Source: Bacteroidota bacterium
GTDB lineage: Bacteria > Bacteroidota > Bacteroidia > Chitinophagales > Chitinophagaceae
Direction: 5' to 3'
DNA length: 64,000 nucleotides
NCBI GenBank assembly: GCA_039796695.1
Contig: JBDKJF010000015.1
Location: forward strand, 1,144 to 65,143
Shown: piece after piece, positions 43,274 through 48,018 of the stretch
Numbering within the stretch: position 1 is the stretch's first letter
How the letters are laid out: every line of letters begins with the position of its first letter
Notes under the pieces: model-generated
What the model was told of the DNA's origin: nothing
Database searches by the model: none
The model's input: only the letters and a program-made list of their open reading frames with translations
Made by a program: the position numbers and the translations under genes

Positions 43274-44392
43274 CTAAAGTGGCAAAACAGGCTTTTGGAA
43301 CGAAACTGGCGGGGCGGTTATGGCTTTTAAGAACTGTATTAGGTCTTGATTTTCTTTTGGCGTAAGTGAAAACGGTTGAATAAGTGTGTCTGCACCCGGT
43401 AAGCGAGCTGCCCCTTTTTGATAATGTGCAATGATGCTGTCCATTTTTATTATAGCGCCATGGTGCATCCAGGGGCTAGTACGTATAACATCACGTAAAG
43501 AAGGTGTTTTAAATTTTCCGATATCAGCTTGTTGATGACTTACTAAATAATACCCTTTATCCAGGGGGCTATTATCGGCTTGTGGAAAACCATTATGGTG
43601 AAATAAGTTGTCCGTAAATAATGGACCATAGTGGCAGTTCATACATCTTGCTTTTGTTCTAAAGATGTGTAGCCCGCGCAGCTCACTACTTGTTAATGCA
43701 TTTTTATTTCCTTTTAAAAATTTATCAAACTTGGTTTCGTTACTTGTAATTGTTTTTTCAAAAGTGGCAATGGCTTCTGTCATTACAAAGGGATCAATTT
43801 CGTAGCTGCCAAAAGCCTCCTTAAACATTTTTTTATAGCCTTTGCTTTTACTAAGTTTTCGCATTACCTCGTGCATCTCACTATGCATTTCAATTTCGCT
43901 ATTGATTGGGGCAAAAGCTTGATCCTGTAAATTACTAGAACGTCCATCCCAAAATAATCTGTTATAATACCAGCTGTTTTGAATAGTTGGTGCGTTTCGT
44001 TTTGTAATAGCTCCTTCATGCCCGATGGATTTTTCTTTTCCATCTGTCCAGTTTAGTTCCGGTACATGGCAAGTGGCGCAACTTATTTTACCAGAGCCGC
44101 TTAGTCTTGTATCAAAAAAAAGGGCTTTGCCTAATTCAATAATTTTTTTTAAGGAGTCGTTTGGGTTTGATAGCGGACCTGCTGGTAATACCCCTAATTC
44201 CTTCCACTCCACCCCGTCATCAACTGCAGGCGCTGGCCATTCTGAAGGAGGTCTACTATAAATAATGCGGAGGCTTTCTGTGGTAAAAGACACCAGCAAA
44301 AAACCTCCGCATATAATTAAAAGTAAAAGCTTGTATTTTCTTTGCAAATGGAATTTTATTAATACTTCAAAAATCATGAAATTAAACAGCAT
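43274..44392 (-). CDS. di-haem cytochrome c peroxidase / MauG family protein
   Basis: Has two CxxCH sites (CATCHVPELNWTDG and CMNCHYGPLFTD), FFDTRLSGSG, WDGR and an N-terminal TM anchor. The ATG at 44392 overlaps the upstream TAA (TAATG). An alternative ATG lies at 44377. Confidence 0.9.
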   Translation of the reverse strand: MLFNFMIFEVLIKFHLQRKYKLLLLIICGGFLLVSFTTESLRIIYSRPPSEWPAPAVDDGVEWKELGVLPAGPLSNPNDSLKKIIELGKALFFDTRLSGSGKISCATCHVPELNWTDGKEKSIGHEGAITKRNAPTIQNSWYYNRLFWDGRSSNLQDQAFAPINSEIEMHSEMHEVMRKLSKSKGYKKMFKEAFGSYEIDPFVMTEAIATFEKTITSNETKFDKFLKGNKNALTSSELRGLHIFRTKARCMNCHYGPLFTDNLFHHNGFPQADNSPLDKGYYLVSHQQADIGKFKTPSLRDVIRTSPWMHHGAIIKMDSIIAHYQKGAARLPGADTLIQPFSLTPKENQDLIQFLKAITAPPVSFQKPVLPL

Positions 44393-47300: not shown

Positions 47301-48018
47301 GCACATCAATTCCCCTTTGTGGATCAAGTATACGTATGGATGATTGTGATTGGAGGTAATCTGAATTAATAAAGAACTTTGTACCGTCTTTAATAGGGTA
47401 ACTGAATTTAATAGTACCAGAAAACCCAGGAAAAATATTCTTACTGCCTGCATCAAACTTGTATAATGCTCTGGTGGCGCCTTGTTGATTTATAGATACA
47501 GCGCCGGGGGTATTATAAAATATTCCACCGGAGCCGCTGGCCATTATTTCCACTCTCTTCCCAAAACGAATAGAAGGACCAAACAACAAGTATGCACTGA
47601 TAGGCTTTGTTTGTGAAACCTGTACCAAATCGCTTGGAAATTTTCTATCAATCATAAAACTATTTAATGCACTGCTATTAATACTGCCGGGGATAATGCC
47701 AGAGGTAAAACCAAGCCCTGCATTGCCAAGGTTGTATTGGCCAAACATTTTAGTGGCTATACTATTACCACGGAACAAAGTATTCTCATTGCTATTTACA
47801 CCAAATGAAGCTCCGGTGCCCACGCCAAAGGCCCAGCTATCATTGGTGGAAAGCAATTTTGCATTGTTACTTCTGGATGAATTTTGATTAAAAGCCCTTG
47901 TGTTATTACTGCGGGCAGAATTTTGATTAAAGGCTCTATTATCTTGTGCAAATAAATAAACGGGTAATAAAAGTAAGGCAGCAGATACTGCCTTGTGGTG
48001 ATTAGTGGCAAACTTCAT
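44392..48018 (-). CDS. large secreted mosaic repeat protein (N-terminal beta-barrel-like region, CarboxypepD_reg-like modules, DxDGDG motifs, several short reiterated peptide motifs)
   Basis: 1208-aa ORF with a signal peptide (LLLLPVYLFAQ). Residues 60-260 show an alternating G/S/aromatic pattern ending IGIIKTF. Also present: 3 x RVLPTVNKREI[AS]IDE[SP]GVH, RDV[AS]SGQATG[KR]R, two CarboxypepD_reg-like segments, 2 x DLDGDG, 4 x 26-aa tandem units and WGDPHV. Confidence 0.85.
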   Translation of the reverse strand: MKFATNHHKAVSAALLLLPVYLFAQDNRAFNQNSARSNNTRAFNQNSSRSNNAKLLSTNDSWAFGVGTGASFGVNSNENTLFRGNSIATKMFGQYNLGNAGLGFTSGIIPGSINSSALNSFMIDRKFPSDLVQVSQTKPISAYLLFGPSIRFGKRVEIMASGSGGIFYNTPGAVSINQQGATRALYKFDAGSKNIFPGFSGTIKFSYPIKDGTKFFINSDYLQSQSSIRILDPQRGIDVPTEQTRPVKLFTAGIGIIKTFGAPSKRVLPTVNKREIAIDESGVHRNAKTVVIEETRRVLPTVNKREIAIDEPGVHRILSIRDVASGQATGRRVLPTVNKREISIDESGVHSALPADNCGPVTVKKTMPDGSTEEKTFSCPADMRAYEKQSDYQPWEITDSDERIQPEQENVSTGSTNNIVAGRVLWSLSAPAGGIVTNRSAAASLAGSGGGAAAASYAATGLIVPGTGVTTNIYVRDVSSGQATGKRSREVGSGMATGRRQYQPVFTEGGNNVCNPCMAIITNNTTRGGSVTMNSQTSSTRTTNQSSFGTLVRNGYPANDCGGVAGLTVYLLNKQTRATVATTQTEICGEFFFANVPDGNYVVKVAGGFSAEKNYDAVLNKRSDVAGEIIAAEDYWSIDITTDTGSVEHAQAVIKTKTKSNQSNDRLVNTSRSNIKNIIIASGDLDGDGMTEILVGNNAALGKVKAKQTQGTTFGEKANQGLQAAGSAVSQGATLVSGNLPSGPVLTPDLMPGSPIGGLSIKGGKNPGGNLRTTQTNAFGEFEFTDLEEGSYTFTADLMYYVDDETTVSLGNEMQTRAQDYNSSRSNKTASKMAGNSDEMQTRAQDYNSSRSNKTASKMAGNSDEMQTRVQDHNSSRSNKSSSIMAGNGDEMQTRVQDHNSSRSNKSSSVSMEKPDADGSNPSAKSGINGINNQMPNRISMNVTVPKQTQGSTFGDKMNGRDNDPNNQMKAQNNNTVRSNRTDNAIVIADLDGDGEMESSYMNINGEVATISIDKPGVQRKNSGIKQTLQTQVFAVNNKPPVKWTAPEAIDRSVWGDPHVDEKEGRLITGGASSSSVAAGKWNSTPVAIKKIECADGVCVIITANGEDIPATTRIGLNGLPPGQPVSRAAVWFTSNNGVVYKKETDTQGRLSLNGLPPGQPLRMMMNAGVAVDEDIIIVFSEDGNGNAISNVLKTKHDTAKNAIGNIR
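45295..45582 (-). repeat. in-frame 78-bp tandem repeat, about 3.7 units
   Basis: Unit starts lie at 45301, 45379, 45457 and 45535 (TTTATTTGATCG...). The units encode EMQTR[AV]QD[YH]NSSRSNK[TS][AS]S[KI]MAGN[SG]D. Units 1 and 2 are nearly identical, as are units 3 and 4. Confidence 0.95.
46969..47223 (-). repeat. three dispersed-tandem copies of a 57-bp coding repeat (RVLPTVNKREI[AS]IDE[SP]GVH)
   Basis: The copies are spaced 93 and 105 bp apart. The DNA shares the core TTCATC[AG]AT[AGT]G[AC]AATTTCTCTTTT[AG]TTTACAGTGGG. Confidence 0.9.

Follow-up and report, generated by a model that had tools for sequence, protein, structure and literature searches.

A family of mosaic envelope proteins with reiterated peptide cassettes in the Chitinophagaceae

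The gene and the architecture of its product

The stretch analysed here (64,000 nucleotides of contig JBDKJF010000015.1, from a member of the Chitinophagaceae; hereafter the window) contains a gene for a 1208-residue protein, a mosaic of folded modules and short reiterated peptide motifs, the latter called cassettes below. The open reading frame (ORF), with an ATG start, lies at 44392..48018 on the minus strand and has its stop codon at 44392-44394, as found by translation of both strands. The initial annotation was right about the 1208 residues and the coordinates and overlooked the strand; a plus-strand reading of 44392..48018 is ruled out, the frame being full of stops. No other ORF of the 64-kb window carries the motifs. 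The protein belongs to an envelope family of the Chitinophagaceae that is without known function and undescribed, and in the literature searched we found neither a description of such a protein nor a paper in which any of five of its motif strings appears. Its architecture is as follows, with confidence values (predicted local distance difference test, pLDDT) from an AlphaFold2 (AF2) model of the mature chain built with 100 homologues (mean pLDDT 66):

47944..48018 (-), residues 1-25: Sec-type signal peptide with cleavage at MKFATNHHKAVSAALLLLPVYLFA/QD, read by eye; equivalent N-termini occur in homologues
47848..47943 (-), residues 26-57: N-terminal linker with two 'a' cassettes (pLDDT 40-47)
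47224..47847 (-), residues 58-265: OmpW/OmpA/OmpX-like outer-membrane (OM) beta-barrel (AF2 pLDDT 90-97; Foldseek)
46954..47223 (-), residues 266-355: predicted disordered linker 1, with three copies of RVLPTVNKREI.IDE.GVH and one Hcp-loop-like RDVASGQATGRR (pLDDT 30-43)
46849..46953 (-), residues 356-390 (359-390 in the AF2 model): two-Cys module CGPVT...FSCP (pLDDT about 70)
46339..46848 (-), residues 391-560: linker 2, with GGGAAAASYAATG, the hairpin TTNIYVRD-VSSGQATGKRSREVGSGMATGRRQY-QPVFT and a CNPC pair, partly ordered as short strands
46054..46338 (-), residues 561-655: CarboxypepD_reg / SdrD-B-like beta-sandwich 1 (Pfam; pLDDT 87-95; UafA B-region in the PDB, E 0.0034)
45904..46053 (-), residues 656-705: KTKTKSNQSNDR and NTSRSNIKN cassettes, then FG-GAP-type Ca hairpin 1, IIIASGDLDGDGMTEILVG (Pfam; hairpin pLDDT 85-87)
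45763..45903 (-), residues 706-752: linker 3, with the core-family motif KQTQGTTFGEKANQGLQAAGSAVSQGA (AF2; regular expression)
45583..45762 (-), residues 753-812: CarboxypepD_reg beta-sandwich 2, IKGGKNPGG...GEFEF...GSYTF (Pfam; pLDDT 89-95)
45073..45582 (-), residues 813-982: linker 4, with an array of four 26-residue units (EMQTR[AV]QD[YH]NSSRSNK...), MPNRISMNVTVPKQTQGSTFGDK and KAQNNNTVRSNRTDN (Tandem Repeats Finder, TRF; pLDDT 30-48)
44974..45072 (-), residues 983-1015: FG-GAP-type Ca hairpin 2, AIVIADLDGDGEMESSYMNINGEVATISID (pLDDT 77-86)
44827..44973 (-), residues 1016-1064: linker 5, with SGIKQTLQTQV, PVKWTAPEAI and WGDPHVDEKEG (low pLDDT in both AF2 models)
44395..44826 (-), residues 1065-1208: C-terminal beta-sandwich with two copies of LNGLPPGQP, capped by the invariant terminal helix SNVLKTKHDTAKNAIGNIR (pLDDT about 90)

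A regular-expression check placed all twelve motif groups of the initial annotation at the residues it had given for them, among them the following:

Residues 28-39 and 41-52: RAFNQNS[AS]RSNN, the 'a' cassette
Residues 254-260: IGIIKTF
Residues 266-284, 297-315 and 332-350: RVLPTVNKREI[AS]IDE[SP]GVH
Residues 321-332 and 476-487: RDV[AS]SGQATG[KR]R
Residues 490-504: EVGSGMATGRRQYQP
Residues 684-689 and 990-995: DLDGDG
Residues 707-717 and 947-957: KQTQG[TS]TFG[ED]K
Eight places, four of them within the 26-residue array: the core [SAV]RSN[KNIR]
Residues 1013-1019: IDKPGVQ
Residues 1055-1060: WGDPHV
Residues 1117-1125 and 1153-1161: LNGLPPGQP

The cassette peptides include RVLPTVNKREIAIDESGVH, REAGSGMATGRRQYQP and AQDHNSSRSNKTAS. 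At the DNA level, the 26-residue array appears in TRF at 45301-45582 with a period of 78 bp, 3.6 copies and 96% identity, the RVLPTVNK unit as three 58-nt copies of 79-88% identity, and the two N-terminal RAFNQNS cassettes as copies of 77% identity, so that repeats of visibly differing ages coexist in one gene. The residues S, G, N, T and A make up 45% of the protein. Many cassettes contain one or two N-x-S/T triplets, the pattern of N-glycosylation sequons, for example NSS and NKT in QDHNSSRSNKT, NNT and NRT in NNNTVRSNRT, NVT in SMNVTVP, NTS in NTSRSNIK and NQS in KSNQSNDR, and several have none.

The initial annotation proposed that residues 60-260 form a small OM beta-barrel, and structure prediction bears this out. 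The region is modelled with pLDDT >90, and the top 20 Foldseek matches in the PDB are all small OM barrels (E 1e-6 to 6e-4, template-modelling score, TM, up to 0.77), led by OmpA 9fzd (E 1.4e-6) and OmpW 8qxp (E 1.9e-6, TM 0.77), followed by OmpX, Ail, NspA and OprG, at a sequence identity to known barrels of only 8-15%. Its last strand, LFTAGIGIIKTF, ends in ...GIGIIKTF with an aromatic terminus, and the signal cleavage-type site LFA/QD can be read from the sequence. With such a barrel the protein should be anchored in the OM rather than secreted, as had first been supposed. The strand and loop pattern of the AF2 model puts both chain ends on one side of the barrel and two long loops on the opposite side. 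In small OM barrels the chain beyond the barrel is on the periplasmic side, and by analogy the approximately 940 residues that follow the barrel presumably hang in the periplasm. The long loops (SNE..LFRGN, and AIN.FL..RKFP.D with a short helix) are near-invariant across the family, a conservation not usually seen in the exposed loops of a small OM barrel.

Behind the barrel, the two CarboxypepD_reg modules recognised from the start are confirmed by Pfam (PF13620 at 553-606 and 753-811, 63.7 bits against a cutoff of 32.3) and are also matched in 42/42 homologues. The FG-GAP-like motif is equally sound, with PF01839 at 680-701 (27.1 bits against a cutoff of 22.1) and a DxDGDG Ca loop. One FG-GAP blade of a homologue aligns with the BBS2 propeller; no closed seven-blade propeller is present, the AF2 model showing two isolated hairpins in the target and some homologues having 4-6. 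The model places the sandwiches at about 565-658 and 755-815, the DLDGDG hairpins at 673-708 and 985-1015 and the C-terminal domain at about 1065-1205. A second AF2 model, of residues 1030-1208 (pLDDT 79), reproduced the C-terminal sandwich, for which Foldseek found no significant PDB fold neighbour (best E 0.025).

Conservation is concentrated in particular residues: C, G, V, T, F, C and D of the two-Cys module are invariant in 42 homologues, and among 45 sequences D.DGDG of hairpin 2 is near-invariant, the W of linker 5 is invariant with its P, K, A, D, P, H and G conserved at >=90%, and K, H, D, N and N of the C-terminal domain are invariant. The eight cysteines of the target fall into four close pairs, which fits an oxidising compartment. 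In total, 486 of the 1183 mature-chain residues (41%) have pLDDT <50, and this is where most motifs sit; these segments, with up to 56% N, Q, S and T and few hydrophobic residues, are predicted to be disordered linkers.

The initial annotation could not place this combination of elements in any family, and neither Pfam nor NCBIfam offers a characterised family that accommodates the protein: NCBIfam gives it no name, and Pfam recognises just the generic beta-sandwich and FG-GAP modules. The target's own PDB search returned the SdrD-B-like module alone, with no Hcp and no kinase, and PHROGs gave nothing beyond one beta-sandwich family whose function is unknown. When the unexplained cassettes were joined into a concatemer, it had only spurious low-complexity matches in the PDB (T-cell receptor alpha chain, HPr). 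Pfam searches with the isolated RVLPTVNK repeats, the 26-residue array, the MPNRISMNV..QTQG block and the target's Hcp-like hairpin matched nothing, and GSGMATGRRQY had 0 matches in viral contigs.

The family and its small secreted relatives

At least 266 relatives of 740-1320 residues, 32-51% identical to the target, were found in the protein database at E <=1e-3 (all family sizes given here are lower bounds); all those listed are 'hypothetical' or named merely after the CarboxypepD_reg domain. Species-representative genomes contributed 68 loci, each in a different genome. Almost all of these genomes carry the label Chitinophagaceae, Chitinophagales or unclassified Bacteroidota, and the carriers with a name are Ferruginibacter, Lacibacter, Agriterribacter humi, Flavihumibacter, Sediminibacterium, Terrimonas, Ginsengibacter and Flavipsychrobacter. 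Cultured carriers include Lacibacter sp. MH-610 (WP_407524784.1) and Agriterribacter humi YJ03.

The cassettes are conserved as exact peptides. Among 120 listed homologues, identical words recur in 55-90; the 7-mer TFGEKVN occurs in 90, LKTKHDT in 82, GSGMATG in 79 (125 copies), KSNQSND in 70 and NSSRSNK in 68 (133 copies). One and the same motif is written in varying synonymous codons between species and between copies, including switches between TCN and AGY for Ser and between CGN and AGR for Arg, and this free synonymous variation means that selection acts on the peptide and not on the DNA. Maps of motif order show a collinear backbone in which cassette type and copy number vary, with swaps at equivalent positions. 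The initial annotation had allowed for lineage-specific drift should homologues lack the reiteration; the homologues keep it, and that test of drift therefore fails.

One swap concerns the strand before the DxDGDG hairpins, which reads (I/V)(N/S)TSRSNI(K/R) in one clade and GGKVSVQD(I/L)(S/H)F at every equivalent position in another. In P0117 (Lacibacter sp. MH-610; locus L004), P0090, P0094, P0097, P0099 and P0101 (our identifiers, as for the homologues below), all members of one clade, every NTSRSNIK cassette before a DxDGDG hairpin is swapped for GGKVSVQDI(S/H)F or AKVNVQDLSFTK, the latter with an exact 11-mer of Hcp1 from Pseudomonas aeruginosa; the replacement is a concerted swap of cassette types within a protein. 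Other members differ in copy number or placement: P0183 has nine copies of RKGWDGSVKGN (16-residue period) and seven of AQDFNTTRSNRERG (36-residue period), while in P0250 and P0164 the normally C-terminal motif LKT(R/S)H(E/D)..K(N/K)S(V/I)SNVR is internal, in P0250 directly after the Hcp-like HEIVSPRDPASGLPTGKRQY.

A search seeded with the kinase-like pieces of the family (see below) unexpectedly brought up small proteins of 188-231 residues without any Pfam domain. In these, a signal peptide is followed by SGINGINGGMPNRISMNVTVPKQTQGATFGEKVNAGLHAAGSA..QGASL, a small Cys-containing beta unit, LLGGALPGGAVISAAVSSVGNL-GGGAAAASYA, ..DGDYxLxVVVEKATSGLKDTLKTQVR.. and the C-terminus GVLK(T/A)(K/R)HDTAKNxIGNIR. 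Their profile gathered at least 1519 clusters, mostly 'hypothetical proteins' of Flavobacterium and Lutibacter (250-290 residues), plus Xanthomonadales metagenome-assembled genomes (MAGs). Searches of Pfam, NCBIfam and the PDB gave this core family no relative. Examples are P0383, P0405, P0400, P0280 and P0303 (loci L077-L081), which are monocistronic and 190-290 residues long; their invariant motifs are MPNRISMNVTVPKQTQGATFGEKVN, K.TSGLKDTL.TQVR and LKTKHDTAKNxIGNIR, next to a conserved Gly/Ala-rich LLGGALPGGAVISAAVSSVGNLAGGAGGGAAAASYA.

The two families are linked by profile comparison (HHalign 99.6% probability, E 6.2e-25), the matching part of the target being the region of linker 2 (99.6% probability). 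The series of motifs that both share, order included, is MPNRISMNVTVPKQTQGATFGEKVN, GLHAAGSA..QGAS, GGGAAAASYA, SGLKDTLKTQV and, at the C-terminus, LKTKHDTAKNxIGNIR. The small proteins (for example WP_163408437.1 of Flavobacterium ajazii, WP_110344700.1 of F. hydrophilum and those of Xanthomonadales MAGs) are as uncharacterised as the target; unlike it, they have no barrel, neither CarboxypepD_reg nor FG-GAP modules and few of the linker cassettes, whereas in the target some core motifs are present as degenerate copies (SGIKQTLQTQV, GLQAAGSAVSQGA). From the ordered motif set and the profile match, the target belongs with this unnamed small secreted family, which we denote 'F-E-l-g-X-k-O'.

Cassettes were also found on their own. 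Scanning metagenomes with the pattern QDHN[ST][ST]RSNK(T) recovered further giants and also other architectures, among them proteins of about 2000 residues and complete ORFs of 105-167 residues in which a signal peptide is joined by nothing more than G/J-type cassettes and the motif KKGYDYYKAQS. Ten of these (L082, L086, L087, L090, L096, L099, L108, L113, L127 and L138; 144-167 residues) are very polar and otherwise featureless, with a signal peptide, one to three (A/K)Q(D/N)(H/N)N(S/T)(S/T/V)RSN(K/R)T cassettes and KKGYDYYKAQS; KKGYDYY also ends the first CarboxypepD_reg module of the giants. A 321-residue protein (L094:527-1492, minus strand) has two QDHNSTRSNKTAS cassettes and then the family barrel only. 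Proteins of about 100 residues in L097 (2878-3171, minus strand) and L137 carry AQDHNS(S/T)RSNKT right after the signal peptide and before a small domain, and the L097 gene follows one for a TonB-dependent receptor. In many metagenomic proteins an NSSRSN-type cassette abuts the signal-peptide cleavage site, as in the target, and homologues and small proteins alike have the 'a' cassette class next to the signal peptide. The neighbours of two small cassette proteins (DUF3078, Peptidase_S41, a TonB receptor, TPR) showed nothing consistent. Since its modules also exist alone, the target is best described as an expanded, barrel-anchored mosaic, and the giant family is a Chitinophagaceae-specific, barrel-anchored, expanded relative of the small secreted family.

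A possible periplasmic docking scaffold

The explanation that we favour, although we would put it somewhat short of an even chance, is a multivalent periplasmic docking scaffold, anchored in the OM with an OmpA-type layout. After Sec export, the N-terminal barrel of 8-10 strands, ending in Phe, is available for insertion into the OM. In the remaining 940 residues or so, which by analogy with other small barrels would hang in the periplasm, small folded spacers alternate with about 490 residues of predicted disordered linker; the spacers are the two-Cys mini-domain, the two transthyretin-like sandwiches, each followed by its Ca2+ hairpin, and the C-terminal sandwich with its helix. The linker cassettes keep their peptide sequence, while tandem duplication and replacement alter their copy number and their types. 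Each cassette might act on its own as a short linear motif and bind a partner in the periplasm, either a protein or a polymer of the wall or envelope, and the folded modules and Ca hairpins would space these motifs along a scaffold held beneath the OM. Binding of a partner by each cassette would make the protein a multivalent docking scaffold. No conserved operon partner was found for the giant family (six homologue loci) or for the small family (neighbourhoods examined), which fits a stand-alone structural or binding role. A precedent in the Bacteroidota is Dma1, in which an 8-strand OM barrel is tethered to a disordered stretch spanning the periplasm (PMC10927553).

Several points weigh against this explanation. 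The scaffold role is inferred from anatomy alone and the periplasmic topology from analogy. Low pLDDT could partly stem from a gappy alignment instead of true disorder, since repeat-rich alignments are gappy and disorder may have been over-called. The invariance of the barrel loops hints at a function across the membrane or inside the barrel that a scaffold model ignores. Finally, the model leaves unexplained those cassettes that look like segments of Hcp, kinase and eCIS_core proteins.

Alternative explanations, gene neighbourhood and known systems

These look-alikes are the starting point of a peptide-mimic explanation, which we consider unlikely. The cassettes would form a modular 'peptide vocabulary' of Bacteroidota secreted proteins, partly captured from the hallmark segments of unrelated proteins, and the giant would be a mimic array with selected copies of Hcp (in two versions), tyrosine-kinase, eCIS HExxH and GDPH segments, serving as a periplasmic decoy, sponge or tethered-ligand sensor that would bind, titrate or report, for example, injection-system components or effectors of neighbours, or factors of eukaryotic grazers. 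In relatives the resemblances, over 10-30 residues, are statistically real; they carry no family membership.

The first concerns Hcp/TssD, the tube protein of type VI secretion systems (T6SS). The initial annotation had likened the RDxxSGQxTGxR string to an Hcp loop, and as a resemblance this is real according to PDB alignments and a Pfam match of a homologue segment. The conserved Hcp hairpin (PF05638) is nearly identical to the family's ..(I/V)xxRDxxSGxxTG(K/R)Rx(H/Y)xP.., and the target hairpin TTNIYVRD-VSSGQATGKRSREVGSGMATGRRQY-QPVFT is modelled with short strands on both sides. In P0117, TREAGSGMATGRRQYQPL (the same motif occurs in P0012) aligns with AREAGSGLATGRRQYEGI of Hcp 5urw; in P0250, SLKGGIHEIVSPRDPASGLPTGKRQY aligns with MVQGFNHEVIIPRDPQSGQPTGQRVH of Hcp3 3he1, with a shorter alignment of GGIHEIVSPRDPASGLPTGKRQY to GFNHEVIIPRDPQSGQPTGQRVH. 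Moreover, SAKVNVQDLSFTKK of P0117 holds KVNVQDLSFTK, an exact 11-mer of Pseudomonas aeruginosa Hcp1 1y12 (sequence verified), and this P0117 segment scores 19.1 bits (E 0.0016) against T6SS_HCP, below the cutoff of 23.5; the Hcp matches in the PDB span 18-26 residues at E 0.2-0.7. Two Hcp-type cassettes interchange with NTSRSNIK at the same FG-GAP blade position, which also favours selected mimics. Only about 20-35 residues match, however, and the target lacks the Hcp fold of about 160 residues; unlike Hcp/TssD it is Sec-exported and membrane-anchored and has no T6SS genes nearby. Membership of the target in Hcp/TssD was rejected, there being no PF05638 match for the whole protein or the hairpin segment, and no T6SS genes lie around the target in the window or in six homologue loci.

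The second resemblance is to tyrosine kinases. PF07714 is matched in 19/42 members, best in P0016 (39.2 bits) and P0009 (38.9 bits; cutoff 23.1), which have LGSGNFGNVYKGRW..VAIK, IIHRDLAARNILVG, K(V/I)SDFGMSR and PVKWMAPE, equivalent to the five kinase blocks I, II, VIb, VII and VIII; the kinase hallmarks GxGxFGxV, VAIK, HRDLAARN, DFG and KWMAPE all occur in both. The first barrel strand, SDAWNFGV, also recalls subdomain IX, so that the blocks run IX-VIb-VII-VIII-I-II over about 950 residues. Block I of these two proteins reads LGSGNFGNVYK(G/E)(R/H)WQSAEVAIKTIRC, and P0052, P0056 and P0065 have LGEG(S/N)FGTVYKGKWRST(E/A)VA(V/I)K. A kinase domain was rejected, as the target has no PF07714 match, the C-terminal model has no kinase neighbour and the homologue blocks are short and permuted. 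Two further kinase alignments, of VEKATSGLKDV with DFGLARDV and of TDNAIVIADLDG with EDNVMKIADFG, were judged unsafe and discarded because the segments belong to the small core family and to a genuine FG-GAP blade, respectively. Finally, P0089 of an Agriterribacter sp. carries at residues 517-535 an inserted GHELTHTVQQAQG that resembles the HExxH end of eCIS_core (DUF4157; 20.3 bits, cutoff 22), at a site where other members have only ...V(K)SNPLY.

In the target itself, the mimic explanation meets mere vestiges (the Hcp-like hairpin, PVKWTAPEAI, PVAIKKI and WGDPHV) and a PDB search without Hcp or kinase. Several resemblances have dissolved, VEKATSGLKD into the small core family and DxDGDG blocks into genuine FG-GAP, and for most cassettes no known match exists. 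In none of the loci examined was the gene linked to T6SS or eCIS genes, and there is no known mechanism that would let a kinase catalytic loop, copied in linear form, bind anything. Were the explanation true, it would mean a protein-level display of conserved foreign peptides without known bacterial precedent, and near-exact Hcp and kinase motifs in an exported protein that is neither would, as selected mimics, represent a new principle; if they are instead what remains of captured gene fragments, they would document an uncommon path of protein evolution.

No more probable is a surface adhesin, in which the barrel would export or display the C-terminal Ig-like and Ca-binding modules in the style of inverse autotransporters, with the repeats binding surfaces or cells. 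A barrel followed by beta-sandwiches and DxDGDG recalls intimin/invasin and Ca-stabilised adhesins, there are weak matches to adhesin repeats (UafA, and 4p99, 6xi3 and SiiE at non-significant E), and copy-number variation is typical of adhesins. However, the barrel is of the 8-strand OmpW/OmpA/OmpX type (TM 0.6-0.77) and not a 12-strand secretion barrel, the 10-strand OmpT, Pla and OpcA reaching TM <=0.38 at most, and Pfam finds no intimin, LysM or autotransporter family. There is no C-terminal domain of the type IX secretion system (T9SS), and the small relatives have a signal peptide only. Cassettes that are near-invariant across genera are likewise unlike surface-exposed adhesin repeats. 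T9SS cargo was rejected as a candidate class: TIGR04183 matches are weak (<=14 bits) and internal, at CarboxypepD_reg, and no sorting domain (TIGR04183/TIGR04131) lies at the C-terminus.

Less probable again is a polyprotein or pro-peptide carrier, cut at the basic residues that flank the cassettes and releasing signal, antimicrobial or cofactor-like peptides. R/K or dibasic sites do flank many cassettes (GRR/VLPTVNKRE, TGKRSRE), cassettes also occur as tiny stand-alone secreted proteins, and identical units are amplified in tandem. A precursor would have no need of an OM anchor and folded spacers, though, nor do the heterogeneous cassette types interleaved with structural modules suit it, and no protease, maturase or exporter is conserved beside the gene in six loci. 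A Peptidase_S41 gene is found 3-6 kb away in three loci, one of them with a small cassette protein (L108); where it lies near the gene it sits in an apparently housekeeping block.

A self-processing wall tether is very improbable. The Asp-Pro bond of WGDPHVDEKDG would cleave itself, and the new Asp would link the barrel part to peptidoglycan or another polymer, in the manner of the autocatalytic Asp-Pro cleavage known from GDPH in vWD/RGM and DPHFII in ITIH. The family motif (WGDPHVDEKEG in the target) has the GDPHxxxxDG spacing of vWD/RGM domains, with GDPH and DG conserved at >=90% in 45 sequences, and it lies in a flexible segment just before the C-terminal sandwich of an OM-anchored protein. 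Against this, GDPH is present in only about one third of the family members and the C-terminal domain has no vWD-like fold neighbour. A vWD/RGM autoprocessing fold was rejected, with no such structure among the Foldseek matches and no Pfam VWD match.

The initial annotation had also considered the protein as a multi-site substrate of a coupled peroxidase. The genes next to it in the window are these:

39631-41859 (-): TonB-dependent receptor, weakly similar to copper and 'CU motif' receptor models
41940-42686 (-): ORF of 248 residues without Pfam, NCBIfam or PDB relative
42734-43213 (-): DUF4920 protein, downstream on the same strand
43274..44392 (-): di-haem cytochrome c peroxidase, directly downstream and outside the family (PF03150 1.9e-53; PDB search)
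48155-48586 (-): bacterial SET-domain protein of 143 residues, immediately upstream (PF00856 2e-19)

Oxidation of the MauG/MbnH kind by this translationally coupled di-haem enzyme is hardly probable. The ATG of the peroxidase overlaps the target's stop codon (TAATG), the enzyme partially matches the MauG and MbnH models, and several cassettes contain Trp. Its NCBIfam scores nevertheless stay below cutoff for both MauG (247 bits against 443.85) and MbnH (199 bits against 362.85), it is far closer to classical CcP (Nitrosomonas 1iqc, 7e-48; MauG 2e-20), and a CCP/MauG gene near the homologue was found in 0/6 loci, which makes the coupling local to this genome, leaves the idea unsupported and means that it is already largely refuted by synteny. 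An MbnP-like partner was rejected too, the downstream ORF of 248 residues having no PDB or Pfam relative. The four downstream genes may form a metal- or peroxide-related uptake cluster. Upstream, beyond the SET gene, lie genes for a nitroreductase, a TonB-dependent receptor bearing CarboxypepD_reg at its N-terminus, a DUF6660 protein and an AraC regulator.

In homologue loci (L003/L004, L005, L006 and L008), recX is directly downstream of the giant in three and about 4 kb off in the fourth, followed by lpxR and a CN_hydrolase gene; two loci have, upstream and in divergent orientation, a gene for a B12-binding radical SAM/DUF4080 protein. The recurrent recX/lpxR neighbourhood is probably housekeeping synteny.

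Lineage-specific low-complexity drift without specific function, to which the polar composition and recent tandem duplications might point, is scarcely credible with motifs near-invariant across genera, and core motifs even across phyla, despite free synonymous change.

The results tie the giant family of the Chitinophagaceae (>260 clusters, 68 loci) to an unannotated small secreted family (at least 1519 clusters, common in Flavobacterium), and therefore one experiment in Flavobacterium could annotate thousands of genes. They also offer a bacterial case in which short linear motifs stay near-invariant within predicted disordered, presumably periplasmic linkers while their number and order change; to our knowledge, bacterial short linear motifs have been little studied outside host-targeting effectors.

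Compared with known systems, the target shares with OmpA/OmpW/OmpX-type barrels a signal peptide and an N-terminal antiparallel barrel with an aromatic terminus, and with OmpA also the position of the rest of the chain after the barrel. Unlike OmpA, it has no OmpA_C peptidoglycan-binding domain (Pfam, NCBIfam), and its extension of about 940 residues, about 40% of it predicted to be disordered, is made of cassettes and beta-sandwiches. Colicin translocation domains are disordered polar Gly/Ser/Asn-rich chains that act in the periplasm through short epitopes (TolB box, TonB box), and the candidate scaffold would resemble them in placing function in short conserved linear epitopes on a disordered periplasmic chain; colicins, however, are imported toxins with known partners, whereas the target is endogenous and OM-anchored, with no Tol or Ton box recognised. 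Dma1, from the same phylum, is similar in its 8-strand OM barrel and long disordered periplasmic region (PMC10927553). In Dma proteins the barrel is C-terminal and accompanied by an inner-membrane helix, a cytoplasmic anti-sigma domain and an adjoining gene for an extracytoplasmic function (ECF) sigma factor (PMC10927553), whereas the target has an N-terminal barrel, no transmembrane helix and no sigma partner, and its linker bears cassettes and folded modules. As an OM-anchored, presumably periplasmic multidomain protein the giant is of a known kind, although its superfamily is uncharacterised, and its surprising parts are the cassette vocabulary and the look-alikes of Hcp and kinases.

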